From Thermoleophilia bacterium (GTDB lineage: Bacteria > Actinomycetota > Thermoleophilia > RBG-16-64-13): 64,000 bases of DNA. The first letter of the stretch is position 1; every line of letters starts with the position of its first letter. Both the position numbers and the translations under genes were made by a program. The notes below the pieces were generated by a model that saw nothing but the letters and a program-made list of their open reading frames with translations, was not told the DNA's origin and did no database searches. This document shows, piece by piece, positions 4,005 through 64,000 of the stretch. The stretch spans positions 84,962 to 148,961 of the forward strand of contig JAXGIS010000002.1 in assembly GCA_040770645.1 (NCBI GenBank), in the 5' to 3' direction.

Positions 4005-5306
<1,302 letters not shown>

Positions 5307-13679: not shown

Positions 13680-14495
13680 CTACCGGGCGAACCTCACTCC
13701 ACCCAACAGCATGCAGGCGGCTTCCAGCACGCCGCCGGCAATAGCCAGGGCCTTGTCGGAGACGGTGAAGCAGTGCGCCACTTCAGCGCGTGGATCCACG
13801 TCGCCCATCTTGAACCCCGGCGTGACCTCGAGGCCCGACCGCAGCAGCCCCCGCAACACACCGTCCAAGGTGGAAGCGAGCGGGAGGTCGCCCACATATC
13901 CGACCACCTCCCCTCTGGCCACCTGATCGCCGATCTGCGCCGTGGCGCGGAACACACCCGCCACCGGCGCCCGCAACACGCGTTCGGCCCCCTTGCCCCC
14001 AATCTCACCCGGAACCCCGGTATTGGGCAACGCCTCTCCCTCCCAGATCACACGACCCAGTGTATGTCCGCGCATGGTCTCCACCACAGCGTGGCAATCG
14101 CGACCGGCTACAAAACCCGGCCCCAGAGCCACCACGGCAGGAGCTTGATCCTTGGCTGTGCCCAGATTGCGCTTGGCGATGATGGCGTCCACCAATAGAT
14201 CGGGCTGCAGCCACTCACGGCACGAAGTTTCGGGATCTACCAGCACCGGGAGCCTGCGCGAAGCGAGGACGTCTTCCACCTCGGCTTGATCCTCTGCCAG
14301 CACCGCCTCCACCCCTTCCACGGTGGCGCTGCCGTCGTAGACGGCTTCCGCGAAGGCCACGGAGCGCCGTACCGGCGTGGGCCTGTCAATCTCGGTCATC
14401 ACTACCTGGAACCCGACTCGGTGGAGACGCAGAGCCACCCCCGAGGCCAAATCCCCGGCACCTTTGACAAGTGCCAACGGCTTGTTACGGCTCAC
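13680..14495 (-). CDS. yqeB: selenium-dependent molybdenum hydroxylase system protein, YqeB family
   Basis: LVKGAGDLASGVALRLHRVGFQVVMTEIDRPTPVRRSVAFAEAVYDG is the YqeB signature. Start at GTG 14495, after GGAGG. Confidence 0.85.
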   Translation of the reverse strand: MSRNKPLALVKGAGDLASGVALRLHRVGFQVVMTEIDRPTPVRRSVAFAEAVYDGSATVEGVEAVLAEDQAEVEDVLASRRLPVLVDPETSCREWLQPDLLVDAIIAKRNLGTAKDQAPAVVALGPGFVAGRDCHAVVETMRGHTLGRVIWEGEALPNTGVPGEIGGKGAERVLRAPVAGVFRATAQIGDQVARGEVVGYVGDLPLASTLDGVLRGLLRSGLEVTPGFKMGDVDPRAEVAHCFTVSDKALAIAGGVLEAACMLLGGVRFAR

Positions 14496-14514
14496 GTTCT
14501 CAACCTCCCCACGG

Positions 14515-15423
14515 TCAGGAGCAGCAGCGAGAACCGCCCGCGGCGCCCCCGGCGGCACTCGAGCCGGCGTCACTCCCAGTGTTTTGGCTGATGCCTGCAG
14601 GCGTCTTCTCCGCTTCACCCTCTGTGGCGAACTCCCGCGCCACCGGGTTGCGCCGGACACGGAACTGCCCCAGCCTGCCGTGACGCAGGGCGATGATCTC
14701 GGACAAGATGCTCACGGCTATCTCACCGGGCGTACCGCCTCCCAAATCAAGCCCGATAGGCGAGTGCACGCGGGCCACCCGCTCGGGATTGGCCCCTTCC
14801 GCCAGCAGTTGCTCCAGAACCACGCGCACCTTGTTCTGGCTCCCGATCATGCCGATGTAGGCCACATCGGCCGAGAGCACTGCCTCGAGCGTATCCTTGT
14901 CGTGCAGGTGGCCGTGAGTGACGATCACCACGTACGAGTTACGATCTAGAGCCACAAGTTCCGGCAGGTTGGCGGGATGGCCGCAGATGACCTGGTCGGC
15001 GGACGGCAGGTTCACATAATCGGCGTATTCGGGACGATTGTCGACCACGATCACGTTGAAGTCGAGCAGTTTGGCCATGGGAGTCAGCTTCTGAGCGATA
15101 TGCCCGGCGCCGGCCACCACCAGCGTCTGCGCGGCCTTGTTGACCTCCAAGAACACCGTGGTCTCCCCGCCGCACTCCATGCCCAACGCGTGCTCGCCCG
15201 AAGTGCGCAGTTCGTACTTGACCGTACGCGATATACCGCGTTTCAGAGCTTCGAGGGCGTCTTCCACCACCTGAAGCTCCACTTTTCCTCCCCCCACCGT
15301 ATCGATGGTGGAGCCGTCCTCCAACACGATCATCTTGGCGCCGGCCTTGCGCGGCGTGGACCCGAAGGACTCCACCACCGTGGCCAGAACGAACGCCTTC
15401 CCGTCTGCGGCCAACTCGGCCAT
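14515..15423 (-). CDS. xdhC: XdhC/CoxI-family molybdenum hydroxylase accessory protein
   Basis: FVLATVVESFGSTPRKAGAKMIV...GGG...VVAGAGHIAQ shows both XdhC domains. It has an unusual Gly/Ser/Ala tail ending in CCS. Confidence 0.85.
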   Translation of the reverse strand: MAELAADGKAFVLATVVESFGSTPRKAGAKMIVLEDGSTIDTVGGGKVELQVVEDALEALKRGISRTVKYELRTSGEHALGMECGGETTVFLEVNKAAQTLVVAGAGHIAQKLTPMAKLLDFNVIVVDNRPEYADYVNLPSADQVICGHPANLPELVALDRNSYVVIVTHGHLHDKDTLEAVLSADVAYIGMIGSQNKVRVVLEQLLAEGANPERVARVHSPIGLDLGGGTPGEIAVSILSEIIALRHGRLGQFRVRRNPVAREFATEGEAEKTPAGISQNTGSDAGSSAAGGAAGGSRCCS

Positions 15424-15445
15424 CTTTTGTACAACTCCTGTGAAG

Positions 15446-17851: not shown

Positions 17852-17903
17852 AGGGGGCGCGGCGCCGTGGCGCCCGCGCCCCATTACTCAATGCAGTAAA
17901 CCC

Positions 17904-21611: not shown

Positions 21612-21671
21612 GGGGTCTCCTTTGCTCGTGGGACATCCTCTTCCTCGGCACGCACCTGGCAGCGCCGTGTA

Positions 21672-21706
21672 TAGCAAAGGGGTCCGGCTACGCATAACCG
21701 GGCCCC
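21672..21706 (-). terminator. terminator after the SDR gene
   Basis: On the minus strand, hairpin GGGGCCCGG-UUAUGCGUAG-CCGGACCCC is followed by UUUGCUAUAC. Confidence 0.55.
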
Positions 21707-28105: not shown

Positions 28106-28486
28106 TCAGCGCATGCGCAGCTTCTGCTCAAACGCGTCCAGCACGATCACCGCGCGCTCGTGGGTACCGCGCCCCACCACGCCTGCCTGGTCTTCCGCCG
28201 ACACCTCGAATACCAGGCGACGGCCCTCTACTTCCACCAGTAGCCGAGGCGCGCACGGTCATGCCGATGCGTGTGGGCGCGAGATGTGAGATGTTGAGGT
28301 GAGTTCCCACCGTGGCTTGGCCGGGCGGCAAATGGTCGGCGATGGCGGCCAGAGCCGCCTTCTCCATGAGGGCCGCCATGGCCAGGTGGACAGGCTACGT
28401 ACCGGGCCGGTGCCCTGGGCGATGGCCGTGATGGCTTCCACCACCACGGTGCTCACCGAGCCGTGGAGTCCGCGTTCAAGTGACAT
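28106..28486 (-). pseudogene. hotdog-fold thioesterase (fluoroacetyl-CoA thioesterase-like), frameshifted
   Basis: MSLERGLHGSVSTVVVEAITA...; ALMEKAALAAIADHLPPGQATVGTHLNISHLAPTRIGMTV; and LVEVEGRRLVFEVSAEDQAGVVGRGTHERAVIVLDAFEQKL* lie in three frames. Confidence 0.75.
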
Positions 28487-28553
28487 GGGCTTCCTTGTCG
28501 TTGAGGGTGTAGTCGAAGGTGCAGTCGCGGGTGTGTACCTGCCTATATTGCGA

Positions 28554-29850
28554 CTACTTGCGCCGATTGTCGACCACTCGCGGCAACCCTTCTTCTGCAT
28601 CCTTCATGCCGGAAGGTTCCACAAAGCGAACATCCACCCGTACGCCGAGTTCATCTGACAAACGCCCTTCCAAGTTGCGGCGCCTCTCCGCAGGTCACGT
28701 ACGTCATCGGTGAAAAAGACCGGGTCCATGCCCACCGAGTACTTCCATGTGATCCAGCCCCTTGCGACTCTCCAGGATAATCTGGAACCGGGGGGCGCCT
28801 CCTTCCACTGCGGTAACACCGCCTCCACCCCGTGCCGGCGAAACGTTGACCTCGCACTTTGAGCATGTCGTCGCACCGGCGCTGCACGCGCGTATGCCTG
28901 GCCAGTGTCCGTCCGCAGGCACACCGCTGCGTGGTCAGCGCCGCCGGGTCTCCCGTGCGGTAGCACCACCGGCACCGCCTCTTTGCTCAGAGAGGTGAAG
29001 ACCAGCTCCCCCCTCCGCTCCCTCAGGTACAAGATGACCGGAGACAGGATCCACCACCTCTACCAGAAAGTGGTCCTCGCTCACATGCAACCCATCACGG
29101 GCCGGGCATTCGAAAGAGAGACCGGGGCCATCACCTCAGACACGCCGTAGGTATCGCGGGCCTCAACTCCCAAGCGACGCTCGATCTCGAAGCGGACGTC
29201 CTCACTCCAACGCTCCCCACCCATCGGAAGAGCAATACGCAGATCCAGTTCGGACAGGTCTGCGCCGGTCTCGCGGGCCACCTCGGCCAAGCGGAGGGCG
29301 TAGAAGGGGGAGCCCACCAGCACCGTGGTGTGGTAGTCGCGCATCACGCGGAGCTGACGGCGGCTGGCGCCGGTGGAGGCGGGGATGACGGTGGCGCCCA
29401 GGCGCTCCAAACCGGCCTGCCAGGGCCCCCGTGGGCAGACCATAACCGAACGTGATCTGGGCCACGTCGTGGGAGCGGGCGCCGCCGGCTGTGCCGGCGC
29501 GCGCCGCCAGTTCGGCAGGTGTTGAGATCTCCGCGGGTGAAGCCCACCACCGTGGGGCTGCTGGGCTACCCGTTGAGGTGTGGATGCGAATCACCCTCTC
29601 AAGGGGACAGCGAACAGACCGTAGGGGTAGGCTTCCTCAGAAATCACTCTTGGTGGTGAAGGGCAACCGCTGTACATCTTCCAGCGTTTTGATGTCCTGA
29701 GGATGAAGGCCGTGCTTCTGCCACAGGGAACGATAGAAAGGAACACTGGAATTACGCCCAACGCAGCGTCATGTGTAGGCGTTTCAGCTGCAACGCGCCC
29801 AGCTCGGCACGCGACATCGTCTCGTATTCCGGGTTCCAAATTTCGTTCAT
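28554..29850 (-). pseudogene. paaK: phenylacetate-CoA ligase family (PaaK-like), heavily frameshifted
   Basis: Ordered fragments in alternating frames: MNEIWNPEYETMSRAELGALQLKRL; NSSVPFYRSLWQKHGLHPQDIKTLEDVQRLPFTTKSD; EAYPYGLFAVPL; RVIRIHTS; VVGFTRGDLNT; ELAARA..SHDVAQITFGYGL; LERLGATVIPASTGASRRQLRVMRDYHTTVLVGSPFYALRLAE...; GELVFTSLSKEAVPVV; DDMLKVRG; ...GLPRVVDNRRK*. I count at least 8 shifts. Confidence 0.85.
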
Positions 29851-30676
29851 CAGCCAATCCCCTTCCCGGCCGGCCCGCCTTTGGCGTTGCCGCTCCCATC
29901 CACATCGGTGCGCCCTCCACCTCGGCCAAAGTAGATGGATTGAATATCGGCGGCCAGCAGCGCAGCCGCCGCGTCTTCCATCACCACGCGCCCGCGCTCC
30001 ATGACCACACCGCGGTGCGCCAAGAGACAGCGCAATGCGCGCGTCCTGCTCCACCAGCAGCAGCGTTAGCCCCGCTCGTTCAACTCCGCAGTGTGCGGAA
30101 GATCTCCCCTCACCACCAACGGCGCCAACCCCATGGACGGCTCGTCCAGCAAGAGCACCAGGGCTCGGCCATGAGCGCCCTGCCCACGGCCAGCATCTGC
30201 TGTTCCCCGCCCGAGAGGGTGGCCGCATGTTGGGCGCGGCGCTCCTCCAGCCGCGGGAACAGCTCGAACACCTCGCGCATCTTGTCGGCAACCGGGCGCC
30301 CGCGGCGCCCGCCTTGAGTAACCACCCAGTTCCAGGTTCTCTTCCACCGTCAGTGGTCCGAACAACTTTGTCGCCCCTCAGGTACCTGCACCACCCCTCG
30401 GCCCACCACCCGCTCCACACTCAACCCGGTGAGGGTGTCTCCCCCCAGTTCCACGGTTCCACTCCACGGCTTGACCACACCGGAGATCACCTTGAGCAAT
30501 GTGCTCTTGCCGGACCCGTTCACACCGATGATGGTGACGATCTCACCCGCGGCCAACTCGAGGTTGACATCGCGCAACACCTCCACGGCTCCGTATCCGG
30601 CGCGCACCCCTCGCAGCCGCAACATGGGCTCCCCAGCCACGCTTCCCGCTGTCGCCGCTTCGGCCGCAGGCGTCAT
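29850..30676 (-). pseudogene. livF: branched-chain amino acid ABC transporter ATP-binding protein LivF, frameshifted
   Basis: Walker [61 protein letters not shown] and HRGVVMERGRVVMEDAAAALLAD lie in different frames (at least 5 shifts). ATG 30676 overlaps the livG stop. The stop overlaps the paaK ATG (TGATG). Confidence 0.85.
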
Positions 30677-31437
30677 TCCAAGTCCTCGCCCAGGTAGGCG
30701 CGGATGACTTCCGGATCCTCTTGGATCATGAGCGGCGGCCCGTCCGCGATCTTGCGCCCGTAGTCCAAGACCACCACCTGATCCGAGATGTCCATGACGA
30801 AAGTCATATCGTGCTCCACCAGAAGGATGGTCACGCCCTCGTCCCTGATGCGGCGCACGTAGTGGGCCAATCCCTCGGTCTCCTCATCGTTGAGACCGGC
30901 CGCGGGTTCGTCCAGCAACAGCATGATCGGCTCCGTGGCCAGCGCTCGGGCGATCTCGAGCAGGTGCCGCTCGCCCAGCGGCAGTGAACCGGCCTCATCC
31001 GCCGCCCGTTCCGCCAGACCCACCCGTGACAGGGCGTGCAGCGCATGTTCCCGGGCCTCACGCTCCTCGCGGCCGTGACGTGGCAGCCGCAGAAAGGCCG
31101 CCGCCAGCCCGGCGCGGGTTCGACAGTGTCTCCCTACCACCACGTTCTCCAGCACGGTCAAATCGTCGAAGAGGCGGCTGTGCTGGAAAGTGCGCGCCAG
31201 CCCCGCGCGGCACATGGCGTGCGCCGGGCGGCCGGTTACCTCAGAACCGCGGAAGAACACCCGACCCGAGGTGGGTCGATCGGCGCCGGCCACACAGTTG
31301 AACAACGTGGTCTTGCCCGCACCGTTGGGACCGATGAGCGCCATGATCTGACCCTCGTGCAGGGCCAAGCTCACGTCGCGCAGCGCTTCCAGTCCTCCGA
31401 ACCGTTTGGACACGGCTTCCAGACGCAGGATGGACAT
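30673..31437 (-). CDS. livG: branched-chain amino acid ABC transporter ATP-binding protein LivG
   Basis: GPNGAGKTTLFN, LPLGERHLLEIARALA, LLLDEPAAGL. Confidence 0.92.
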   Translation of the reverse strand: MSILRLEAVSKRFGGLEALRDVSLALHEGQIMALIGPNGAGKTTLFNCVAGADRPTSGRVFFRGSEVTGRPAHAMCRAGLARTFQHSRLFDDLTVLENVVVGRHCRTRAGLAAAFLRLPRHGREEREAREHALHALSRVGLAERAADEAGSLPLGERHLLEIARALATEPIMLLLDEPAAGLNDEETEGLAHYVRRIRDEGVTILLVEHDMTFVMDISDQVVVLDYGRKIADGPPLMIQEDPEVIRAYLGEDLE

Positions 31438-35255: not shown

Positions 35256-36698
35256 TTAATGATCGGACATACCACGAGCGCGGGCGCGCGCCAGATCCTC
35301 CACGCAGTCAACGTCCAGGCCTTCGTCGCCAACCGCCTGGACCCGCAACACCCGGTCGCCCATGTCTTGTAGCACAGCCCGTGCACCTTGGTCGCCGGTC
35401 AGAGAACCTATCGCGGGGAGCAGTGAGCGGTTGATGACCACAGGCGGGCCCCAGGTGCCGCCCGGCGTCTCCAGCGCTGCGGCCGCGACGGCCGGATTCC
35501 GCTCCCAGACTGCCAGGAGCCTCCGGATGGTATCCGCGGTCACGAAGGGCTGATCGGCCAGGAGGACTATGAGGTCCCGGCCGCCTGCGTGGTCCGCACC
35601 CAGAGCCAGCGAACCGCCGATGCCCTTCTCCGGATGGGGGTTGACCAAAATGCGCCAGCGATCGCCGCCGTTCGGCGCCGGGGGTACATCTCGGCCCAAG
35701 GCAGCGCGCACGGCCTCCGCTTCCCTCCCGGCCACCACCAACACCGGCGGCTGCGCGCCTCCCCCGAGGGCCGCCCTCACTGCCCGCCCCACGAAGGTCA
35801 CGCCGTCGAGTTCGAGCGTGACTTTGGCACAACCGCCCATACGTCTGCTGAGGCCCGCCGCCAAGACCACGGCGGCGGGCCTCCGCTCCATGTGCCGTAG
35901 ACACTCCACGATCGGCCCTTCCTCCGAGCCCACCGCTCCCATCCACACTCCGACGGGAGCCCGGTGCGCGGCCTCCATGAGGATCGCGTCGGGAGGATAG
36001 GCGTCGGCCTTGTTGAACAAGCACACCAAGCGCGCGTGCAGAGGCACGCTGTCGTGGTACCCGAGCACCAGGGCGCGCAGCAGGGCCTCGGGTGGGATCG
36101 GCCGCCCCGGCTCCAGATCGAGGAGATCGGCCAGCAACGACGCGCGATGCACGTGCTCCTCGTCCAAAGGCACCCACTGCGCCTCCAGCCCGCACATGGC
36201 AATCACGAGGGTGGCGCTCTCCGGCAGCACCGGTTCGTAGGCGGCGGGGGCCTTCAGTGGAAGGCGGGCGGCACCGTCGGCCTCGATGAGCACCGCCTCG
36301 ATTCCGGACAGATCGCGGAGTGCCGGAATCCAATCGGTGGGTATGCCGTCGAGCTTGCCCGAGGCCAACACCCTCGTGCCGACCACCGGCGATCGCCCGC
36401 CGCGGGTCACTCCCAGCCGCTCGATGCCGGCCGCAACCTCCGCCACGGTATCGCCGAGCACCAGCGGCCGACCCGGGCCTTGCTCCGCCCCCTCCCCTCC
36501 CTGTCCGAAGCGCAAGCAGCCCGGCTCAGCCGCACGCGGCGCCGGGGGCATGATCTTGGTGGTGGTGGTGACGATGACCCGCTTTCCGGCTTGTTCATAT
36601 TCGCGCGCCAAGGCCTCGAGCAAGGTGCTCTTGCCGCCCGCACCAACCAGACACACCACTTCGCGTGGCCCCAGTTGCAGTTGTTCGCGTAACGCCAT
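35256..36698 (-). CDS. fusion of YqeC-family selenium-dependent hydroxylase accessory protein and MocA-like molybdenum cofactor cytidylyltransferase
   Basis: The N-terminal part VVCLVGAGGKSTLLEALAREYEQAGKRVIVTTTTKIMPP is the YqeC signature. The C-terminal part AAVVLAAGLSRRMGG..K...LADQPFV is the MobA/MocA NTP-transferase fold. Confidence 0.85.
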   Translation of the reverse strand: MALREQLQLGPREVVCLVGAGGKSTLLEALAREYEQAGKRVIVTTTTKIMPPAPRAAEPGCLRFGQGGEGAEQGPGRPLVLGDTVAEVAAGIERLGVTRGGRSPVVGTRVLASGKLDGIPTDWIPALRDLSGIEAVLIEADGAARLPLKAPAAYEPVLPESATLVIAMCGLEAQWVPLDEEHVHRASLLADLLDLEPGRPIPPEALLRALVLGYHDSVPLHARLVCLFNKADAYPPDAILMEAAHRAPVGVWMGAVGSEEGPIVECLRHMERRPAAVVLAAGLSRRMGGCAKVTLELDGVTFVGRAVRAALGGGAQPPVLVVAGREAEAVRAALGRDVPPAPNGGDRWRILVNPHPEKGIGGSLALGADHAGGRDLIVLLADQPFVTADTIRRLLAVWERNPAVAAAALETPGGTWGPPVVINRSLLPAIGSLTGDQGARAVLQDMGDRVLRVQAVGDEGLDVDCVEDLARARARGMSDH

Positions 36699-38958: not shown

Positions 38959-39642
38959 ATGCATTCTGATGATACAGCCCCCGGGGTGAACTCCGTACTC
39001 GAAAGGCTCTTATCCGCCAAAGATCCGCTGCTGGCCCAGGGCCTAACCCGACTGGGCTGGCCGCCGTCAGCCGTCCTGGGAGTGGACTCCGCAACCGTGG
39101 AGCACCTCGCCCGAGAGATCGGCCGCAACCACGCACTGGCCCGCGCTCTCTGGAGTGAAGGTTTCCGAGAGACACGCCTGCTCGCGATACGCTTGGCGCA
39201 ACCCGCCGAGGCCGATGCGGCCATGCTCGACGATTGGGTACACCAGAAGTACAGCTGGCGAACTCGCTGCATACCTCACCGAACACCTGCTGGTGAAGGC
39301 CTCTGCGGCCAGATCCCGGGCCCCCAGTTGGAGCACCGCTCAGCAGCCCTTGGTTCGCGCCATCGGCTACGAACTGCACGCGCCTCAATCTCGACGATGA
39401 GGAACTGAGCCCGGATGCCCGCTTCCCCGGATATTTCACTCTCTCAGGGTTGAGCGACCAAAATGTCGGAGCACCGGCAAATGCCTGGGTGCGGGGGTGG
39501 CGGTCGGTGATCCGCTACCTGGGCCGCCGAAACCGGCGGGCGGGGCAGAAAAGCCGTGCGCCGGGCCCACGAAGCGCTGCTGATGTGGGAGCAGGACAAA
39601 GTGGAGAGGGCACAGGCCGGCCGGCGCCGCCCCGGTGGGTGA
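38959..39642 (+). pseudogene. DNA alkylation repair (AlkD-like HEAT-repeat) protein, frameshifted
   Basis: LGVDSATVEHLAREIGRNHALARALWSEGFRETRLLAIRLA...DDWV; then ..ELAAYLTEHLLVKA.. in a second frame; the C-terminus KAVRRAHEALLMWEQDKVERA* is in a third. Confidence 0.65.
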
Positions 39643-39660
39643 CCACCGGGGCGGCGCCCC

Positions 39661-41344
39661 CTATACCACGAACAGATTGACCCCTTTGAACGTTTCGCCG
39701 TCGAATAGACCGGTGTCGCTCATCTTGAGACTGGGGATGACCAGCAGAGCCATGAAGGACAGCGTCATGAACGGCGCCGAGAGCCTGGATCCCAAGTCCT
39801 TGGCCGCGCGGTCGAGCATGTCGTAGGCCTCGGCCACATCGAGCCCGATCATCCGGGCTCATGAGCCCGGCCACCGGAAGCGGCAGGGAGGCCGTGCGTC
39901 CCTGTGCGGCCACCGCCAAACCGCCGCGATTCCCTGACCACCTCGTTGACCGCTGCCGCCAGATCCTCGTCGTCAGCCCCACGGCCACGATGTTGTGCGA
40001 ATCGTGCGCCACCGAAGCCATGGCTCCGTGAGAAAGCCCGAAGTTACGAATGAAGGCCACCGCCGGTAGGGCTTCCTGGTACCGGTTGAGGACGGCTATT
40101 TTGAGGAGATCTCGGTCGGGGTCGGCCACTACCCTTCCGTCCCGCACCGTCGGCGTCATAACCAGGCCGGCGCGTCAGAGTTGTCCCTCCAGCGCTTCCA
40201 TGACGTTGATGCGCCCGGGCCGCTCCGCCACCACGAAAGCCTCCGCCCCTGTTCGCGCACCGCGAAACGGTTGAGAGCACTCGGCGGAAGACACCGTGAA
40301 CAGCGCCGTGCCGTCGGCCGCCACCAAACGCCCCCTCACGTAGGTGCCGATGACGTCGAAGTCCTCAAGATCGGCCACTATCACGAAGTCGGCCGGGTCT
40401 CCCGGTTGCAACAGACCCACGTTCAACCCGTAGTGGCGCACGGGATTGAGGGACGCACACCGCAGGGCCGTCAACGGATCGATCCCCGCGCCCACCGCCC
40501 GCGCCACCAACTTGTTGATGTGGCCTTTCACCAGATCGTGGGGATGCTTGTCGTCACTGCAAAGCATGCACCGTTCGGGATAATCCCGCATGAGGGGGTA
40601 GAGTAGATCGAACTCGCGGGCGGCTGAGCCCTCGCGGATCAGGATCTTCATGCCCAGACGGATCTTCTCCTCGGCCTCCTCATAGCTCAGGCTCTCATGA
40701 TCCGTGGAGATACCGGCCCCGATGTAGGTGGCGAGATCTTGGCCGCGCAGGCCGGGCGCGTGACCGTCGATGGGTTTGCCGTGTCGCTTGGCGGCGGCGA
40801 TTTTCTCCATCACCTCGGGGTCCCCGTTGATCACGCCGGGGTAGTTCATGACTTCGCTCAGGTAGTGAATGTCGTCGCGGCTCAGAAGCTCGTCCACCTC
40901 CGCGGGCCCCAAACTGGCCCCCGACGTCTCGAAGGGTGTGGCCGGTACGCACGAAGGCGCACCGAAAGCGAAAGTGAACGGCGCCTCGGCGCCGTCTCTC
41001 ACCATGAAGTCCACCCCACGGACGCCCAGCACGTTGGCAATCTCGTGGGGATCGCTTACCGTGGCCACCGTGCCCTGCCGAACGGCCAACCGCGCGAACT
41101 GGCCGGGAGTGAGCATGGAACTCTCCACGTGCACGTGAGCGTCCACAAAGCCCGGCATGATGTAGCGGTTCTCCAACACTCCCCCCGAACCGGGCTCACG
41201 CCCCGAGGCGGACCCCTCGTTCCGCCTCACTGCAGCCACACGCCCGTCCACCACGTCCACACTGCCCGGGAAGATCTCTCCCGCCACCACATCCACTATG
41301 CGCCCCGACACGGTGAAGGCATCCTGCCGGTCATTCATGCCCAT
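39661..41344 (-). pseudogene. ade: adenine deaminase with one in-frame TGA and three frameshifts
   Basis: PGFVDAHVHVESSML...DPHEIANV...IDGHAPGL...STDHES in the 389-aa ORF. There is an in-frame TGA at 40177..40175. It then reads DLLKIAVLNRY...SVAHDSHNIVAVG, ADDEDLAAAVNEVV (other frame), [23 protein letters not shown], and [39 protein letters not shown] (other frame). Confidence 0.88.
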
Positions 41345-43264: not shown

Positions 43265-43726
43265 CTACAACCGCCCCTCCGCCATCGCCTCCCTCACGTC
43301 GGCCAACACCTTGGCCGCATGCCCGCTGGCCTTGACCCGTTCGTACGCCAGTACTACCGTGCCGTCACGTGACACGACCACCGTGTCGCGTTCAGTGCGC
43401 CCGGTGGGTGACTTCAGGACCCTGTAATCGGCACTGATGGTCCTCTCTTCGTCGCCGATGAGTGGGAAGCGCAGCCCGTGCTTGGCACTGAACTTCTCTT
43501 GGGTCTTGAGCGTATCCACCGATGCTCCCACCACGGCAACCCCCAACGCCACAAACTCAACGAGAGCGCGGTAGAACTCAACCGCCTCGGTGGTTCAGCC
43601 GGGCGTGTTGGCTTTGGGGAAGAAGTAGAGAACGACAGGACCGCGCGTCAACAACTCCTCTAGGTCCACCGGTCCCTGGGTGCTCTCGGCCCGGAACACG
43701 GGCGCTCTCTCGCCAGTTGCAATCAT
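43265..43726 (-). CDS. bcp: Bcp/PrxQ-type peroxiredoxin with a predicted selenocysteine (TGA) at the peroxidatic position
   Basis: ATG 43726 follows GGAGGAG: MIATGERAPVFRAESTQGPVDLEELLTRGPVVLYFFPKANTPG-TGA(43597..43595)-TTEAVEFYRALVEFVALGVAVVGASVD..., in frame with the 95-aa ORF 43265..43552. This is the same position as Cys in the E. coli Bcp motif VYFYPKAMTPGCTVQA. Confidence 0.8.
43564..43588 (-). promoter_or_regulatory. candidate bacterial SECIS hairpin
   Basis: The RNA GAGGCGGU-UGAGUUCU-ACCGCGCUC starts 7 nt after the UGA. It forms 5 bp, a 1-nt bulge and 3 bp, with an 8-nt loop that has G at position 2. Confidence 0.5.
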
Positions 43727-43729
43727 GTC

Positions 43730-44092
43730 TCACTCCTCCGGCGGCTGAAATCCGAGTTTCACTTCGGTCCGGCCTGCTTCTTTGATCTTGCCGTACGCGC
43801 TCTCATAGCGAGCAAGGTTTTCCTGCAACGCGTTCACGATCCGCTTCATGTGGCTCGGATTGGTGATGACCCGGGCCACCACCTTACCCACGCCGCCGCA
43901 CACAAACGCGTAGTCCATGACGAACTCGGACACCGAGTGCTGCACGCCCATCATGTTGCTGTAGGTACCGGCCACCAAATCATCCGGGATCTTCACCTGG
44001 ATCTCCTCGGGACGTCCTGCTCTCTGCTCCGCCACAGCCTCAGCCTCCTTATCTCCATTACCGGCGACACCTGCCGTGCCACCCGACCGCAT
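43730..44092 (-). CDS. DUF3467-like small protein
   Basis: IPDDLVAGTYSNMMGVQHSVSEFVMDYAFV...ARVITNPSHMKRIVNALQENLARYE. Confidence 0.7.
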   Translation of the reverse strand: MRSGGTAGVAGNGDKEAEAVAEQRAGRPEEIQVKIPDDLVAGTYSNMMGVQHSVSEFVMDYAFVCGGVGKVVARVITNPSHMKRIVNALQENLARYESAYGKIKEAGRTEVKLGFQPPEE

Positions 44093-45959: not shown

Positions 45960-47180
45960 CTACGCCGCGCGTTCCATGCACTCAACAAAATGCTGGAAGT
46001 GGTAGCGGCCGTCGTGCGGCCCTGGGCTCGCCTCCGGAAGGTACTGCACGCCAAACGCCGGGATATCCTGGAGGCGCAATCCCTCCACCGTGCCGTCATT
46101 GAGATTGAGGTGGGTCACCTGCACAGGCCCATAATCGGTATCCAGCCACAGCTCTTCGGCGCGAATAGCAGACAAGTTACTGTCTCTCTCCAGCGCCTCC
46201 GTCACCACCCGCGGCGTCTCCACGGCGAAGCCGTGATTCTGACTGGTGATCTCGATGAGATCCAGGACGTAGTTCTTCACGGGATGGTTGACCCCGTGAT
46301 GGCCGAATCTCAACTTGTGGGTACGCAGCCCCACCGCCGTCGCGAGCAACTCGTGCCCCAGGCAGGTGGCGAAGATGGGCACACGACCCAGCAATCCCCG
46401 GATGGCCTCTACGGCATAAGTGAGCGGAGCGGGATCGCCGGGGCCGTTGGAGAGGAACACCCCGTCCGGGCTCAGGGCCAGCGCCTGTTCGGCCGAGAAG
46501 GAGGCCGGTACCACGGTGACCCGACACCCCGCCTCCTGAAGACAGCGAAGAGCGGAGCGTCTGATGCCGTAGTCGAACGCCACCACGTGGAAGCGCCTCT
46601 TGCCGGTCACCCGCGACTCCGTCGTTTCCCCACGCTCCGCCACCTCGGCCTCGTATGGGTGGGCAGAGGTGACGTTCTGCACCAAGTCGCGGCCGGCGAG
46701 CGCCCCAAAGCCGCGCACATCCGCCAAAAGGCCGTTGACATCAAATGCGGAACCGGCGGCCACGCACGCGGTCATGGTTCCCTGCTCACGAAGATGCCGC
46801 GTCAACGCACGCGTGTCCACGCCGCCCACGCCCACCACCCCGTGGGCGCTCAACCAGTCCACCCACGGCTCCGGGCTGGTCCGGTTGTAGTTGGTGTTCT
46901 TAACCTCACGCACCACCAGGGCCCGCGCGTGCGCACGATCCGACTCCATCTGCCACTCGCCCACCCCGCAGTTGCCAACCATGGGGTACGTGAAGACCAG
47001 CAACTGTCCGTGAGAGGAGGGGTCGGTGACCATTTCCTGGTACCCGGTCATTCCCGTGCCGAAGACGATCTCGCCCAGGGCCTTCCCCTCAACCCCGAAG
47101 CCGAAGCCCAGGAAGACCGCGCCGTCTTCCAGCACCACGTAACCCGGCACCTCACTCCTATACACCGGGAGCCTCCGCAT
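45960..47180 (-). CDS. carA: carbamoyl-phosphate synthase small (glutaminase) subunit
   Basis: GEIVFGTGMTGYQEMVTDPSSHGQLLVFTYPMVGNCG and the FATCLGHELL catalytic Cys. The start is probably ATG 47180. Confidence 0.92.
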   Translation of the reverse strand: MRRLPVYRSEVPGYVVLEDGAVFLGFGFGVEGKALGEIVFGTGMTGYQEMVTDPSSHGQLLVFTYPMVGNCGVGEWQMESDRAHARALVVREVKNTNYNRTSPEPWVDWLSAHGVVGVGGVDTRALTRHLREQGTMTACVAAGSAFDVNGLLADVRGFGALAGRDLVQNVTSAHPYEAEVAERGETTESRVTGKRRFHVVAFDYGIRRSALRCLQEAGCRVTVVPASFSAEQALALSPDGVFLSNGPGDPAPLTYAVEAIRGLLGRVPIFATCLGHELLATAVGLRTHKLRFGHHGVNHPVKNYVLDLIEITSQNHGFAVETPRVVTEALERDSNLSAIRAEELWLDTDYGPVQVTHLNLNDGTVEGLRLQDIPAFGVQYLPEASPGPHDGRYHFQHFVECMERAA

Positions 47181-48625
47181 TCCCCGAGAAGCCGGAGACC
47201 GACCGGCGCGCCCGCGCGAAGCGCCGGGCGCCGTCCACCACGGTGAGCAACACGCGCCCCTGCACACGCCGGCCCAGGAACGCCGAATTACGGCACTTGC
47301 CCTTGAGGTCGGCTGTGGTTACCGTCCAGTCCTCATCGAGATCGGCGACACAGAACCGGGCCGGCGCACCCACCTGCAACTGTGGAGCAGGCAGGCCCAG
47401 CACGCGGCACGGCCCAGAGCTGAGAGCGCGAATGAGCACTCCCAAGGAGATGTCTCCGGGTACCACCAATCCTCCGTACAACGCGGCAAACGCCGTCTCC
47501 AGGCCCACCGTCCCGAAGGGCGCTTCCTCAAACGGAACCTCTTTTTCATGCGGTGCATGAGGAGCGTGATCGGTGCCGATGCAGTCGATGGCGCCTTCCA
47601 CCAGCCCCGTCACAAGCGCCCGCCTATCCGACTCTGAGCGCAGCGGGGGGTTGACCTTCAGGTTCTGATCGAAGCTCCGCACCGCCTCATCAGTCAAGAG
47701 AAGGTGGTGAGGCGTTACCTCGCAGGTTACCGGCAGCCCCGCGGATTTGGCTCCCGTCAGCAGACGCAGGCTCTCAGCCGCAGAGAGGTGTTGAAAGTGC
47801 ACGAACGGTTCCCGCTCTGGCGCGTGCTCGAGAGTGCGGCTCCTTCCGGCCTCCGCTCCGCCGCCGCGCACGGCCAGCGCTTCTTCCTCCGCCGCCGCGT
47901 AGGCCGCCACCTGCAGATCCCGGCCAGGGCCCTGTCTCGGCCGTATAGGGCACTCCCGCAGGCCCAAGCGAGCGCTCCAGCGCCCCTCGTGCATGACGCC
48001 CGCTGCGGACAGAGCCCGGTCCTCGAGATGCAACAGTACCGGCCGGCCGGTCCCCCGCAGGTAGCGCAGCGCGTGCAGGAGGAGATCGGAGTTGTTGACG
48101 GGCCGGCCGTCGTCGGAGAAGGCAACCACGCGGCCTCACACAACTCCCTCATTTCCGCCATGTCTTGCCCTCGAGTCCACGGCTGACGGCTCCCACCTGG
48201 CCCACCAGTACGTCGGCTCCGGCCGCGGCTTGGTCGAGCACCCAGGAGGCAAGCGGCCCCACATCCACGGGCGGCTCCGTATTGGCCATGCCAACCACGG
48301 CTACGAACCCGCCGGCCGCCGCAGCCCGGGATGCGCTGACCACGTCCTCCTTGTACTCCAGTCCGGGCGTACGTAGGTGGGCGTGTGGGTCCACGAAGCC
48401 GGGAAAGACCCAACAGCCGGTGAGATCTCCGAGCACCTCGGCCCCCTCCGGCGCCACCAACGCACCGCCCATGGCGGCGATGCAACCATCCTCCACCAGC
48501 AGGTCGCCGACCAGGTCAACACCGCAACTCGGATCGAAGAGGTGAACAGAGGGTAGGAGCAGGCACTCCTGCGGACGCGGCCGACACGCCAAACGCGGCG
48601 CGGTGCCGGAAGAGGATGAAGTCAT
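47158..48625 (-). pseudogene. pyrC: dihydroorotase, two frameshifts near 48130-48170
   Basis: PGFVDPHAHLRTPG in ORF 48149..48625; QDMAEMRELCEA in a second frame; VVAFSDDGRPV...HLEDR...EVTPHHLLLTD...GTDHAPH in ORF 47158..48129. Confidence 0.88.
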
Positions 48626-55818: not shown

Positions 55819-56059
55819 TACCGCTCGGGCTTTGCCATCAGGCGGGTAGCCACCCCGACGCCGCCCACCGACGTTGAGGTGACCTCCTGAGCAGACGCTC
55901 TATATGTCTGTATCCCCAAAACTTCAGGAGATCAAGCAGGTCTTTCCAACCATCCCCAGGAGGCTGCCGGCCAGTCACACAGTCGCGGCTGCGGCAACGG
56001 CAGAGGCCGTGAAGAATTGAGCCGCCGAGACCGCTCGCGTCCTGTCAAAGGAGGCTAGG

Positions 56060-56603
56060 AGCCTGTCGGGAAAAACCCGCAGGTGAAGTCTAGACTCTCC
56101 CGGGCCGGGCGGGTAGTGTGGCTGGAAACGACCCAGGAGGCGTGCTCGTGGCCCGGGACTTCCTGCCCTATGATCTCGACCAGCAGTATCTGCTTCCTCC
56201 CAGCCTGAAAGAGTGGCTCCCTGCCGACCACCTCGCCTTCTTCGTCTCCGACGTGGTCGACTCTCTGGATCTGTCTCTCATCATGGACACCTACCAGAAA
56301 GACGAGCTTCGCGGCCGCCCCGGATATAACCCGGCCATGCTCCTCAAGCTCCTCATCTACGGATACGCCCAGGGCAAGACCTCTTCCCGCAAGCTGGAGC
56401 GCTCCACCTACGAAGAAGTCCCCTACCGCGTCCTTGCCGGCAACCAGCACCCCGACCACGACTCCATCGCCTCGTTTCGCAAACGCCATCTCGCGGCGCT
56501 CGGTGGCCTCTTCACCCAGGTCCTTCGCCTCTGTCAGGAGGCCGGCCTCATCAAGCTGGGTCACGTGGCCTTGGACGGCTCCAAGCTGAAAGCGAGCGCA
56601 CAC
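56060..56603 (+). mobile_element. IS1182-family IS remnant: 5' end plus the first ~150 codons of the transposase (GTG 56148), truncated
   Basis: AGGAGG-7 nt-GTG, then ARDFLPYDLDQQYLLPPSLKEWLPADHLAFFVSDVVDSLDLSLI..GRPGYNPAMLLKLLIYGYAQGKTSSRKLER...HVALDGSKLKASA. Homology stops at about 56601-56606. The left IS boundary could not be determined. Confidence 0.75.
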
Positions 56604-56606
56604 CCC

Positions 56607-57227
56607 CACCGCCGACAGCGGCGGCACCTCTTCACCGGCCGCCAGGCGCCCGGCCAGCTCCTCCAGCCCCGCGATGTACGCCTCCATCACCTGGCGATGG
56701 CGCTCCAGCGAGAAGATGAGCGTGACGTTGATGCAGGCGCCCCGCCCCACCAACGTGCGGATGGCCTCCACCCCCTCGACGGTGGCGGGGACCTTGACCA
56801 ACACGTTGGGCCTGTCCACCATGTACGCCAGCCGTTCCACATCCGCCACGGTGGCGGCCGCGTCGTGAGCCAGGCTCGGCGCCACTTCGATGCTGACCCA
56901 GCCGTCTTTGCCGTGCGTTCCCTCCCAGACCGGCCGCAGCACATCGGCCGCCATCTGGATATCCTGGGCCATCAGGATATCCACCACCTCCGACGCCGAG
57001 AGCCCCTCGCGCGCCAAGTCGGCGATGGCCTGGTCGTACTCGGCGGAAGCGGTCACGGCTTTGTGGAAAATAGTGGGATTACTGGTGATGCCGGTGACGG
57101 CATCCCCCGCCACCATGGCCTCGAGTTCACCGTAGAGAACCACTCCCCGGCGTATGTTGTCGTACCACACACTCTGGCCGGCGGCGTACAGGCGCTGCAA
57201 GGGATTCTGCTCGTAAATGTCCACCAT
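56607..57227 (-). pseudogene. tal: transaldolase, 3'-truncated at the IS junction
   Basis: MVDIYEQNPLQRLYAAGQSVWYDNIRR...GITSNPTIF...WVSIEVAP...VLVKVPAT...INVTLIFS...EEVPPLSAV. The expected SVASFFVSRVD is replaced by the antisense of the transposase. Confidence 0.85.
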
Positions 57228-60674: not shown

Positions 60675-60692
60675 CTTAACCTATAAACCATG

Positions 60693-63600
60693 TCAACCCT
60701 TTTTCCCCTCCGGCACGATCGCCAGCCAGCACACCAGGTGCACGTCTTCGATTTCGATGAGGGGCAGTGGTTCTGGAGCCGGACTCGGGCTGAGACCCAG
60801 TCTTTACCTCCTCGGCGACCGCAACCGCCTGACGGGCCGGGTCGTCGCTGGAGCGGAGGGCCCCGCGCAAAGCCCTCTCGATGCGCGCTCCGTAGGTGCC
60901 TCCACCGCATCGATCAACCACTCGGAGCTCCTCTTGAGGGATGTCCCCCGGAGGATGAGACCGCAGGAGCGCGGCGGCGTCCCGCATGGCTTTGGGTACC
61001 TTGGGCTGCAGGTTGAAAGGATCGGTGGCCTTCTGCCACTCCGCGAAGATGTGGTGGCGGGCATCTCCCAGGCATCGTAGGCCAGGTGGTAGAGTCTCGG
61101 AGTCGAGCGCACGCTCGGTATCCGCGTGGACCTGAGCCTGTGAGAGGCAGACGAGGGTCTCGGAGTCGACTTTGGGGATCCCATCTTCGGGGTAGCTCAC
61201 GTAGCGGTATTGTGCAGCCTCGTGATCGGCCACCCGAGCGCAGAAGACGAAGCCCCGGTCCGCCCTGAACGCACGAACCCGCTGCCCGAACCCCAAGGCA
61301 GAGCCCGCACCTGCCTGTGGTAATGGCGAAGCGGGTCGAGTCCCCGCTTCAGTTCTTGTCGGAACGCCTCGCCGAGTAGGCGTCCCCCTTCTCGCCTCCG
61401 GTCTCAAACAGCGTGGATCCCCTTGCAGGCGGAGGATCTCCTCGCGGGTGTCGGCGAAGATGACGTCGTGCACCTGCGAGCCGGGGAGCACTTCGCCTTC
61501 CACTCCCACGGCGGCTGCCGCCTGCCCGATCTTGCGCTGTAGGCGCTCTTCTAAGCCGAGGAGATCGTCGAGCTTCTGGTCGGGGAAGAAGCAGCGGAGG
61601 AACACGCGATCGTGGCGGCTGCCGATACGGTCTATACGCCCGTGGCGCTGTACCAGACGCATAGGGTTCCAGGGTAGGTCATAGTTGATGATGTGGCGGG
61701 CCTGCTGCAGGTTAACGCCTTCTGCCAGCACATCGGTGGTGACGAGGATGTCGTATCTGTCTTGGTCTCTTCCGGCAGGAGCGTCCGTGGTCTTGGGCGC
61801 AAATCCCCAAAGTACATCTGAGCGGTCCCCCCCGCGCCCGGAGATGGTCACCACGCGCCCAAGGTAGGGCGCCAACCGCGGGTCCGTCTTTGTGACTTCT
61901 TGGAGATACTTCTCGATCCAATCAGCCGTGTCGGCAAAGTACGAGAAGACGATCACCTTGCGGGCATCACGCACCTCCGAAGGCGTGAGCCCCTCTTCGT
62001 GAGCCTGCGCGGCAATATCGGCGAGCTCTTCAGTCAAGGCGGCCAGTTTGGGGTCGGTGCAGGCAGTGATGCGGCGGGCTTCGGCGGCAAATGCCAAAAG
62101 CAGTTCCTGATCGGCCGCCACATCGGCTCTTAGGGCGGCAACATCATAGGAAGAAGCGGGCTGACGATCGGTCAGATCCAGACCCTCCACATCGAGTTCA
62201 TCGCTGAGTTTATTGCTGAGTTCGTCGCTGTCGGTCGCCATCCACTCGGCAAGCGCGGCTCCGGTCACCACCCAACCCTGGTCCAACAGCTCCAGAAAGG
62301 CCCCGTGGGAGGCGGCCATGCGCTCGCAGGTGAGCGCAAAAGCATGAGAGGAGGACTCGAAACGTTTAAGCAGCCCCGAACGCAGAAGCCCTGCCAACTG
62401 TAGCTCATAGGATTCGGGATGCCCGGAGAGCGAGTACCCCGAGGGAGCGTAGCGGGCAAGACACAGGGTCGGTTGCTCCTCTAAGTCGTGCCCACAGATG
62501 CACCTGCCGTTGCCGCAATCGAGCGCATGGGCGAAACGGACAAAGAAGCCCGGCAGCGTCTCTTCTAAGTCGTAGGAGACCCGCTGCACCTTGGGCTGAG
62601 GGAAGCGAATGGCGACGCTCTCTCCTCGGATGTTCACCCGATCGTTGGGATAGTAGAGCTTGACGAAGTGACGCGTGCGCCGGACCGCCACCTCGTCTAG
62701 GACATCGAACAGCTTGTCTGGCGAGAGGTCGTCGGGATCCAGGGCCATAGCTTGGGCGAAATGGCCCCGCAAGGACCGTATGCCGGCGTGGGCAAAGGCG
62801 GCGTCGTTGCGGATGAAGTAGCCCAGGAGGTAGTAGAGGTCCCAGAGACTGTTGTTGACGGGGGTGGCGCTCAGCAGCACAAGATCTTTGGGAGGGGTAC
62901 CTTCGAGCAACCTGCGCAGCACCTCGGCCCGCTCGGTATCGGGGTTGCGGTAGGCTTGGGCCTCGTCGATGACCACCATGGCAAAATCGTCTATGGAGAA
63001 GTGCAGATGATCGCCATCACCTTTTGGGTTCAATTGGTGATCCCGGGAGAGCTCCTCGTAGGAGATACTACGGATGCCCAACTGGTGTTGGCCTAAGAAG
63101 TAGCGCCAGGGCCCGTCACGCAGGGCGGCCGGGCTGACCAGGAGCACCCGTTGACGCCGCTCCTGCACCGCTTGGCGGATGAGCTCGCCGGCCACAAAGG
63201 TTTTGCCCAGTCCCACCCCGTCTGCGATCAGCACCCCGTGGTGTTTGTCTAGGATGCGTTTGGCCCGCCACACCCCGTCATGCTGAAAGCTGGTGAGATG
63301 GATGCCTGCCGCTCCTTGGGCCTCCTCTTCCAACTCGGCGCCGTAGCGCTCATAGAGCATGCGCAGGTAGATCAGATAGGGGCGGTGGGGCAGATAACGG
63401 GCGGCGTAAAGCGAGGCGAGATCGAAGGGGGCCGACTGTTCCCAGACCTCGTCGAACCAATCCCTCACCTGCGCGACCACGTGCGGCTGGTACTGCCCTA
63501 AGTTGAGCTCGTTGTTGGTGGCCAGACCGGCGTAGGTGAAGTTGGACGATCCCACCACGGCACCCTGAGCATCGGTGCCCACCAGAAAAGTCTTGCCGTG

Positions 63601-64000
63601 CAGAAAACCGTGCTCGAAGCGGCGAATCTCCACCCCCTCCCGCCCAAGCCAAGTGATGAGGCGTTCGGCAAGCTCGTCGGTCTCAAGAGAAAAACCCAGC
63701 AGATCTCGGTCGGCTTTAAGCGAGCGGGTGTGCCCCTCCAGCGCCCGACGGAGTCTGGCCCGCTCCATCTCCTCGGGCCCGCTCACCGGATCAAGGTGCC
63801 TAAGTTGCCGCTCTTGGCCCTCAGGCTCCGCCCCCAGCACCAGCCGTACCCGCCCCACCTTCTCCAGCACGTCCGCCAGCAGTTGGAAACCTTCGGCGTT
63901 GAAGTAGGCGGTGGAGATGGCAAGCTCGAAAGGAGCGGCCAGAGTAGCCAGCAGATGCTCAAGGTAGCCACTGATGGCGGCGGCCACGGTGTTGTCGGAG
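60693..64000 (-). pseudogene. PLD-like nuclease domain fused to an SNF2-family helicase with a C-terminal domain of unknown function; 5' end beyond the window; at least 4 frameshifts in the 3' third
   Basis: The frame is open to the window edge (GTG at 63987 is only the caller's start). PLD motif: FLHGKTFLVG...VVGSSNFT. SNF2 motifs: ADGVGLGKTFVAGE, VVIDEAQAYRN, LLSATPVNNSLWDLY, LAEGVNLQQARHIINYDLPWNPMRLVQRHGRIDRIGS. The segments STLFETGGEKGDAYS, GEAFRQELKRGLDPLRHYHRQVRALPWGSGSGF and the true C-terminus LGLSPSPAPEPLPLIEIEDVHLVCWLAIVPEGKKG* (stop at 60693) are in other frames. Shifts are near 61420, 61372, 61255 and 60800. Confidence 0.85.

Follow-up and report, generated by a model that had tools for sequence, protein, structure and literature searches.

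Does the UGA codon that interrupts a peroxiredoxin gene of a Thermoleophilia bacterium specify selenocysteine (Sec), or does it mark the end, or the corruption, of an ordinary reading frame? The gene lies within a 64,000-nucleotide stretch of assembly GCA_040770645.1 (contig JAXGIS010000002.1, positions 84,962 to 148,961), here termed the window, in which position 1 is the first letter. An earlier note, prepared from the letters alone, had proposed that the minus strand at 43265-43726 encodes a complete peroxiredoxin (Prx) of the Bcp type that is missed in the list of open reading frames (ORFs), with TGA at the position of the peroxidatic cysteine and, downstream, a hairpin resembling a selenocysteine insertion sequence (SECIS). 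On the basis of the comparisons described below, the probability is placed at roughly 90% that UGA-44 is a genuine Sec codon and that the gene specifies one 153-residue Bcp/PrxQ peroxidase with Sec in place of the peroxidatic cysteine.

An in-frame UGA at the peroxidatic position

The following features of the gene are relevant to the analysis.

43265..43726, minus strand: Bcp/PrxQ-type peroxiredoxin ORF of 153 codons, from ATG 43726 to TAG 43267..43265, by direct translation
43733..43739, minus strand: Shine-Dalgarno-like GGAGGAG, 6 nt upstream of ATG 43726, by direct reading
43595..43597, minus strand: UGA codon 44, the putative Sec codon, aligned with TGA or TGC/TGT in relatives
43595..43618, minus strand: catalytic motif P37-K-A-N-T41-P-G-U44 (PxxxTxxU), by direct reading
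43388..43390, minus strand: codon for Arg113 (in TERDT), the conserved active-site Arg, which aligns with the ER(S)T Arg of structures 5enu and 5iph

Translation of the minus strand from ATG 43726 revealed a single in-frame internal stop, the TGA at codon 44 (43597..43595), with the same frame running through both halves. The residues around this codon read VVLYFFPKANTPG*TTEAVEF, giving the motif YFFPKANTPG*TTEA, and the PxxxTxxU pattern is that defined in a review of selenoproteins (PMC13188914). Of this gene, the mechanical ORF list has no more than two pieces, one N-terminal of 43 aa and one C-terminal of 95 aa (43265..43552). The start codon, the GGAGGAG tract and the full-length frame that the list misses were all found where the earlier note had placed them.

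Profile searches of the protein were run with U replaced by C. Here, the joined protein matched the Pfam AhpC-TSA family (PF00578) with 104.8 bits (cutoff 26, E = 3.9e-30), residues 5-125 aligning with profile positions 2-122 of 124, as would be expected of the complete Bcp that had been proposed. The top NCBIfam matches were PrxQ and Bcp, both under their equivalog cutoffs (75.9 versus 260 bits for PrxQ-Dein and 71.9 versus 140 bits for PRK09437). All 13 matches in the Protein Data Bank (PDB) were to Bcp or to generically named Prx/AhpC-TSA entries, and none of these 13 was named AhpC/Prx1, Tpx or Prx6. The TGA of codon 44 aligns with the peroxidatic Cys of PKxxTPGCT in the solved Bcp structures, in agreement with the position originally assigned to it. 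The conserved Arg, whose role in peroxiredoxins is established, is retained as Arg113. The window protein contains no cysteine at all, and U stands at residue 44. Taken together, these matches indicate that the locus is a genuine Bcp/PrxQ-type peroxiredoxin gene, the Bcp fold being assigned without ambiguity from sequence.

The UGA codon in related genomes

A scan of related genomes, with one genome retained per species, gave 80 related loci, each of which was aligned to the active-site region (loci are cited below by L numbers and database proteins by P numbers). Codon 44 is TGA in 52 of the 80 loci and TGC/TGT in the other 28, or 53 and 28 of 81 sequences when the window is included; given that one of the scan patterns was YFFPKANT, the sample is enriched for this subfamily and these proportions of Sec and Cys forms are no census. 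The check for TGA or TGC at this codon in relatives, which the earlier note had suggested, thus found both codons at the same position. The tblastn matches in the related genomes span query residues 1-153. TGA forms come from metagenome-assembled genomes (MAGs) of Actinomycetota that bear the label Gaiellales or Thermoleophilia, as well as from numerous Acidobacteriota (Acidiferrales, Terriglobia and Bryobacteraceae), and codon 44 is also TGA in four additional relatives (L088-L091). The closest full-length homologue (P0001, 61% identical) is a Cys form that reads TPGCT at this point. The closest relatives in the public protein database are stored as C-terminal fragments of 88-101 aa (P0002, P0005, P0007, P0013 and P0039), and the annotation of L090 has a separate 43-aa gene for the N-terminal piece; it was correctly anticipated that gene callers miss such genes.

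An independent check of the base call matters because the window contig is not clean, several of its genes being broken. Given the disruption of pyrC and of the adenine deaminase, gltA-like and transaldolase genes, it could be argued that the TGA is a nonsense mutation, or a sequencing or assembly error, in a dead or mis-assembled Cys-Bcp gene. Six contigs from Logan short-read assemblies of six different SRA/ENA runs, all of the same species as the window (98-99% identity over 1.1-1.9 kb) and all encoding P0002 exactly, were therefore of particular value: every one has TGA at codon 44. The TGA, whose verification from reads had been recommended, is confirmed by these six independent short-read assemblies. 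An error or a pseudogene is also at odds with the TGA of L088-L091 and of 52 species-representative genomes from two phyla.

Position +5 from the peroxidatic residue holds the resolving Cys in many Bcp proteins. Cys was observed there (U-T-I-E-A-C) in 6 of the 53 Sec forms (L044, L049, L051, L052, L054 and L071). The Sec clade therefore appears, by its sequences, to hold both a U-x4-C type and a 1-Sec type, and the window protein with its zero cysteines is of the latter.

Selection on both halves of the gene

The ratio of nonsynonymous to synonymous substitution rates (dN/dS) between the window and L001-L005 was 0.11-0.18 over the 43 codons upstream of the TGA and 0.12-0.30 over the 109 codons downstream; dS is near saturation in this comparison, but the contrast with neutrality is nonetheless large. 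The 43 upstream codons are in frame with the downstream part in all 53 TGA forms. Given the similarly low dN/dS on both sides of the TGA, both halves are kept as protein in a single frame, an outcome that argues against a dead or mis-assembled gene.

The same data bear on the proposition that translation simply stops at the UGA, to yield a peptide of 43 aa, a distinct C-terminal protein (88-95 aa) made from an internal GTG, or both. Such fragments are what automatic annotation gives, both in the five stored C-terminal proteins listed above and in the 43-aa gene of L090. However, the C-terminal fragment would be without the whole active-site loop and the N-terminal fragment without the rest of the thioredoxin fold, the internal start varies among relatives (the truncated calls run from 88 to 101 aa), and the upstream codons are as constrained as those downstream and stay in frame throughout the TGA forms. 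Termination at UGA-44 is accordingly given next to no credence.

A reassigned genetic code is not the explanation for the in-frame TGA, since TGA is the commonest ordinary stop among the candidate genes of the window (42 of 59, by a crude call based on GC content at third codon positions). When the window was searched systematically for further in-frame TGAs with coding sequence on both sides, no second selenoprotein candidate emerged. The TGA at 40177..40175 in the adenine deaminase gene was considered as a Sec codon and rejected: it aligns with a non-Cys position, the ORF is also frameshifted, and relatives hold an intact gene of 551 aa.

A hairpin specific to the TGA forms

Two overlapping features describe the RNA structure downstream of codon 44.

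43568..43585, minus strand: conserved core of the candidate SECIS, GCGGU(U)G-AGUU-C(U)ACCGC, at +12..+29 from the U of UGA
43564..43588, minus strand: hairpin as drawn in the earlier note, GAGGCGGU/UGAGUUCU/ACCGCGCUC, which is the minimum free energy (MFE) fold at -11.9 kcal/mol

A covariance model derived from 46 acidobacterial SECIS sequences proved too sequence-specific to transfer, and hairpins were instead tabulated sequence by sequence for the 31 distinct TGA-form sequences. In all 31, the 5' arm is found at +12 (+/-1) after the U of the UGA. The apical loop, of 3 to 8 nt (AGUU, GUU or AGUUY...), opens at +19/+20 (at +17 in the fold of the window itself) and invariably includes G20-U21-U22; it sits on stems of 7-8 bp. 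The arms themselves differ from clade to clade. The stem is GCGGUUG/CAACCGC in the actinobacterial loci (peptide EAVEFN) and GCGUCCG/CG-C-GACGC, with a bulge, in most acidobacteria (EASEFRDA); other clades have CCGGCG/CGCCGG (EAGEFRR) or GCCGUCC/GGAUGGC (EAVQFRDG). The stem of L012, GCCGUUG/CAACGGC, has C-G at one pair where its relatives have G-C. When the sequences are anchored on the fixed 5' arm, each of the stem positions +14 to +18 is occupied by two to five standard pair types.

For comparison of Sec and Cys forms, a hairpin was scored where there were at least 6 bp, a loop start at +17..+20, a G in the loop and an energy of -6.5 kcal/mol or lower. Such a hairpin occurred in 53 of 53 TGA forms and in one of the 28 Cys forms (Fisher p = 1e-20, without correction for phylogeny). 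TGA orthologues that lack a conserved hairpin, named in the earlier note as an outcome that would speak against its proposal, were not encountered. The mean MFE of the +9..+35 segment was -10.1 kcal/mol for the TGA forms versus -4.8 kcal/mol for the Cys forms (p = 3e-11), a gap that holds despite the higher GC of the Cys forms over the 57-nt segment from codon 44; six sequences of one clade reach just -6.7 kcal/mol. All 53 TGA forms fold better than their own synonymous-codon controls (mean z = -1.46), the corresponding mean for the Cys forms being -0.08. Fixed-column pairing was 89-90% in register, as opposed to 13-63% with the partners slid.

The Cys form L087 allows the contribution of the peptide to be separated from that of the RNA. 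Its peptide, EAIEFNQLL, is one residue off that of the Sec-form L003, and its RNA reads GCUAUCG-AGUU-CAACCAG, in which the stem is lost. Given that nearly the same peptide is encoded without the stem, the hairpin is no side effect of the peptide sequence. The specificity of the hairpin for TGA forms also bears on the suggestion of a nonsense mutation or an error. Although the window hairpin taken alone is not significant, the recurrence of the TGA, the purifying selection on both halves in one frame and the distribution of the hairpin leave that suggestion effectively refuted, with a probability that is negligible.

Among the acidobacterial Sec forms sits one TGC Cys form, L014 (3130-3177 of DATLST010000121.1, an Acidiferrales MAG). 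It retains a complete hairpin, which scores 37.5 bits against the SECIS model, and G20 of its loop is changed to A (GAG to GAA). L014 seems to have switched from Sec to Cys recently and to have kept a 'fossil' SECIS.

Fit to the bacterial SECIS model

The published bacterial SECIS consensus (PMC13188914) comprises a loop of 3-9 nt, an upper stem of 4-16 bp, a UGA-to-loop spacing of 16-37 nt, a G in the first two loop positions that is usually followed by G/U, and an MFE of -7.5 kcal/mol or lower. The element in the window falls within the limits for loop and stem size, loop G and MFE. The UGA-to-loop spacing is 16-17 nt in the family and in the sister strains represented by the six Logan contigs, and 14 nt in the window's own MFE fold. 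The model also calls for compensatory change together with absence from Cys homologues, and both were observed (hairpin in 53/53 TGA forms versus 1/28 Cys forms). In common with the bSECISearch consensus, the structure is a coding-region stem-loop that follows the UGA immediately; its apical loop is small and contains G then U, its upper stem has 7-8 bp and its MFE is near -10 kcal/mol. It stands apart in the 16-17 nt spacing of the family, which is as short as the 16-37 nt range allows. Judged by these properties, the hairpin fits the published bacterial SECIS model and is a candidate SECIS. The prototype of bacterial SECIS elements is that of E. coli fdhF, to which the window element has no sequence similarity. 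No Rfam match was obtained over the whole window at gathering thresholds, nor over 43450-43700 at E <= 10, and Rfam seems to be without a model that fits this SECIS type.

The hairpin drawn in the earlier note consists of the conserved core plus a lower stem, GAG/CUC, with a bulged G. Its status as the MFE fold and its G-containing loop were upheld; conservation extends just over the core (+12..+29), the lower GAG/CUC pairs being strain-specific and not conserved in orthologues. The apical AGUU of the core occupies 43578..43575, with G20 at 43577 and U21 at 43576.

The window differs from all six sister-strain contigs at 43573, 43565 and 43560 (T versus A on the coding strand), which are nt 154, 162 and 167 of the minus-strand gene and lie in or beside the hairpin. 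For two of the six contigs these three are the sole differences in the Prx gene, and two of the three changes alter the protein (N52Y and D56V). The sister-strain stem is a perfect 7-bp GCGGUUG-AGUU-CAACCGC. Unlike this stem and the consensus form, that of the window strain carries a U.U mismatch in its upper part as a result of the first change, and the MFE loop opens to 8 nt (UGAGUUCU, with G second). The second change tightens the lower GAG/CUC extension, and the net fold energy is unchanged (-11.9 kcal/mol in the window versus -11.8 kcal/mol in the sister strains). The window hairpin can thus be drawn with an 8-nt loop and 8 bp (MFE), or with a 4-nt loop and 6 bp plus the U.U mismatch; its energy is -11.9 kcal/mol as a whole and -7.6 to -8.3 kcal/mol for the core only. 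The three clustered differences could be either compensated variation or contig error.

Selenium genes and the case against selenocysteine

Two selenium-related genes are present elsewhere in the window.

13680..14660, minus strand: YqeB (TIGR03309, 371 bits versus a cutoff of 220)
35256..36698, minus strand: YqeC fused to a MocA-like cytidylyltransferase domain (TIGR03172, 127.5 bits versus a cutoff of 73; TIGR03310, 93 bits)

Both had been reported in the earlier note, and both scores exceed their cutoffs. YqeB is a maturation factor for selenium-dependent molybdenum hydroxylases, and its presence implies that the organism makes selenophosphate, SelD being implied indirectly. The YqeB/YqeC trait depends on SelD (PMC5029168). 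YqeB and YqeC show selenium use, not Sec decoding as such. An XdhC-family maturation factor lies beside YqeB (13680-15546), and no match to the catalytic subunit of a molybdenum hydroxylase (xanthine-dehydrogenase-like) was seen among the window ORFs scanned. Sec-decoding members are known in the Actinobacteria and the Acidobacteria (PMC1794560); nothing specific was found in the literature on Sec use in Gaiellales/Thermoleophilia.

A gene for 6-oxocyclohex-1-ene-1-carbonyl-CoA hydratase was also observed (20475-21695, minus strand; TIGR03200, 523.7 bits versus a cutoff of 464). This enzyme is a marker of anaerobic benzoyl-CoA degradation, and the gene hints at an anaerobic or facultative lifestyle. 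Such a hint fits PMC1794560, whose tabulated organisms rich in selenoproteins have anaerobic or microaerophilic lifestyles.

Several observations weigh against the assignment of UGA-44 to Sec. No SelA, SelB or SelD was detected among the ~58 window ORFs in NCBIfam and Pfam scans. ARAGORN found no tRNA genes in the window, and no tRNA-Sec with a UCA anticodon either there or in 87 loci; the flanks of the related loci, including +/-10 kb on the longer contigs, likewise held no Sec machinery. The window hairpin, when considered alone, folds no better than dinucleotide shuffles (z = -1.05; 31 of 200 fold as well), and its significance therefore arises only via comparison with related loci. The U.U mismatch weakens the conserved upper stem, with the MFE loop of the window starting at +17, 14 nt after the UGA, and the family-register fold in the window reaches -7.6 kcal/mol with a pair probability of 0.26 for the inner G18-C23 pair. 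Covariation in fixed columns is modest, with 2 pairs changed on both sides and a score that was reached by 33 of 500 shuffles; as evidence for the hairpin it gives weak support, the few double-sided changes being due to movement of the bulge and register between clades. The acidobacterial covariance model finds the window site at 15 bits (E = 0.57), and the window and actinobacterial loci as a group at 14-19 bits (E = 0.06-1.1), in part by way of local alignments in which the stem is skipped. Finally, the several broken genes on the window contig show that the sequence quality is imperfect.

An unusual tRNA was observed in locus L023, from an Acidobacteriaceae MAG (CAZRKW010000126.1). It is 83 nt long (4661-4743, minus strand), lies ~1.2 kb downstream of the Sec-Prx gene and was called as tRNA-Ile(UAU) by ARAGORN. 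It scored 35.9 bits against the Rfam tRNA-Sec model (gathering score 47; E = 1.3e-5) and resembles the acidobacterial allo-tRNAs of PMC5389517.

The fact that Sec machinery is seen nowhere in the window favours recoding of UGA-44 by some route other than Sec, be it as Cys via a selC*/SelB* tRNA-Cys(UCA) or by SECIS-independent near-cognate read-through. That selC* tRNA-Cys can decode UGA as Cys in a SECIS-dependent manner has been demonstrated (PMC5389517), and such decoding would need the same UGA and hairpin; the tRNA-Sec-like allo-tRNA beside the L023 Sec-Prx gene points the same way, though its anticodon is UAU, not UCA. However, selC* is reported from Firmicutes, Thermodesulfobacteria, Nitrospirae and Proteobacteria, not Actinomycetota, and genomes with selC* always also have complete Sec machinery (PMC5389517). 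Furthermore, YqeB and YqeC indicate selenium metabolism, and Cys is directly encoded at this position in 28 relatives. Given that Cys can be encoded directly, a benefit of Sec is the best explanation for why a costly UGA and hairpin have been kept in two phyla. Non-Sec recoding, for which this lineage offers no positive support, is thus considered highly improbable.

A broader proposal has two parts: a widespread clade of truncated soil selenoproteins with its own compact SECIS class, and non-canonical decoding of UGA in some lineages. The clade may extend to most Acidiferrales/Terriglobia-type Acidobacteriota and to Gaiellales-like Actinomycetota, with a loop just 16 nt after the UGA, at the consensus limit. 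The decoder might be a tRNA-Sec-like allo-tRNA or a selC*-type tRNA instead of the SelA/SelB/SelC route. This combined proposal is judged unlikely, and the assignment of UGA-44 as an ordinary Sec codon is preferred.

Relation to known peroxiredoxins

Sec-containing peroxiredoxins (Sec-Prx; PF00578, with TxxU/PxxxTxxU motifs) are an established family of prokaryotic selenoproteins (PMC13188914), in line with the description in the earlier note of a known but rarely annotated class. They have been found computationally since 2004-2006, with 43 COG1225 sequences from Sargasso Sea data, and a 2016 survey counted 91 Sec-Prx proteins in 78 organisms. COG1225 is the Bcp-type COG, in keeping with the Bcp-like best matches obtained here. 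The window gene resembles this family in its Pfam assignment, its redox motif (PKANTPGU), its UGA in place of the peroxidatic Cys codon, the SECIS-type hairpin immediately downstream inside the ORF and the wide occurrence of Cys homologues. The published tallies cited are drawn mostly from Deltaproteobacteria, Clostridia and marine metagenomes, whereas the window clade comes from Thermoleophilia/Gaiellales-like Actinomycetota and soil Acidobacteriota. The placement is at the level of the family, whose listed representative is WP_011365628.1. To the extent that sequence can tell, the window gene agrees with Sec-Prx in every feature compared and belongs to an already known family.

PrxU of Eubacterium acidaminophilum is a biochemically demonstrated Sec-peroxiredoxin (PMC13188914). 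The window protein shares with it the peroxiredoxin fold and Sec at the peroxidatic position. It scores 28 bits against the PrxU model (NF040737), far below the cutoff of 270, and PrxU is longer (a 233-position profile) and of a different Prx subfamily; the window protein was accordingly rejected as a PrxU orthologue. Closer likeness was found to the Cys-type Bcp/PrxQ proteins (E. coli Bcp, PRK09437; Xanthomonas campestris 3gkk and 5iiz; 5enu), with which the window protein shares fold, length, ~40-45% core identity, the PKxxTPGCT loop, the conserved Arg and a C-terminal GHxxxVL motif. It differs from them in having U for the peroxidatic Cys and in the absence of the +5 resolving Cys (the CxxxxC of many Bcp proteins).

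Proposed decoding and catalysis

By analogy with characterized systems, a two-stage scheme can be proposed. During translation, the hairpin 12-29 nt downstream of UGA-44 would act as a bacterial SECIS, its apical G20-U21 being offered to SelB loaded with GTP and Sec-tRNA(Sec). Insertion of Sec would follow, in competition with RF2, and translation would proceed to the TAG at 43265. In the folded enzyme, the selenolate of U44 would be activated by T41 and R113 of the PxxxTxxU...R active site and would attack peroxide to form a selenenic acid. Given that the window protein has no cysteine, there can be no resolving Cys and no intramolecular bond, and an external thiol reductant would be required. 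The intermediate may thus be reduced by thioredoxin, a glutaredoxin/mycoredoxin-like protein or a low-molecular-weight thiol, in a '1-Sec' mechanism. Within this scheme, we infer Sec insertion, the organism's possession of Sec machinery and the identity of the reductant.

Gene neighbourhood and state of the contig

One neighbouring gene is of direct relevance.

43730..44092, minus strand: DUF3467 gene (Pfam DUF3467, 76 bits), with its TGA stop 3 nt before the Prx ATG

DUF3467 also lies immediately upstream of Prx in L002, L003, L083, L087 (a Cys form) and L088-L091, so that in the actinobacterial lineage the adjacency holds for Sec and Cys forms alike. The two genes form a conserved pair and probably an operon, and the 3-nt gap between stop and ATG suggests co-translation and a functional link of the DUF3467 protein with Prx. 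The wider gene order, carA, (plsY), glycosyltransferase, DUF3467, Prx, carboxylesterase and adenine deaminase (ade), is the same in the window, L001-L003 and L088-L091. These actinobacterial loci, all of which have TGA, are by their gene order positional orthologues of the window gene.

Several genes of the window are disrupted, some of them essential. pyrC (47158-48625) is split in two, the intact form in relatives being 479-486 aa. The adenine deaminase gene (39515-41344) has frameshifts downstream of its in-frame TGA at 40177..40175. A gltA/SudA-like (glutamate-synthase-like) gene (17888-19323) lies in three frames, a transaldolase gene (56055-57227) gave a partial profile match and is probably broken, and PaaK and LivF-like (ABC ATPase) fragments (28300-30700) gave partial profile matches. 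Given that pyrC and adenine deaminase are intact in relatives, the broken genes suggest assembly indel errors, not real decay.

At the edge of the window, a SNF2-like helicase of 1103 aa (60676-63987, minus strand) matches in part the models of DISARM DrmD and of other anti-phage helicases (155 bits versus a cutoff of 610) and may belong to a defence island.

Implications

With regard to annotation, a single selenoprotein of 153 residues should be assigned to the gene. Given that its relatives are stored as stumps of 88-101 aa, sometimes with an additional 43-aa piece, an antioxidant enzyme is absent from public protein sets, which also underestimate selenium use in the Acidobacteriota and in Thermoleophilia/Gaiellales-like Actinomycetota, two lineages that are abundant in soil and sediment. 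No new mechanism is revealed; what is added is a large clade that gene callers routinely split. The 53 Sec forms and 28 Cys forms constitute a comparative set for the evolution of SECIS elements within coding sequence and for Sec/Cys exchange, and the set also offers the 'fossil' hairpin of L014 and strain-level variation inside a SECIS. As a natural 1-Sec Bcp without cysteine, the window protein would be a convenient one in which to compare Sec and Cys in peroxidatic chemistry.

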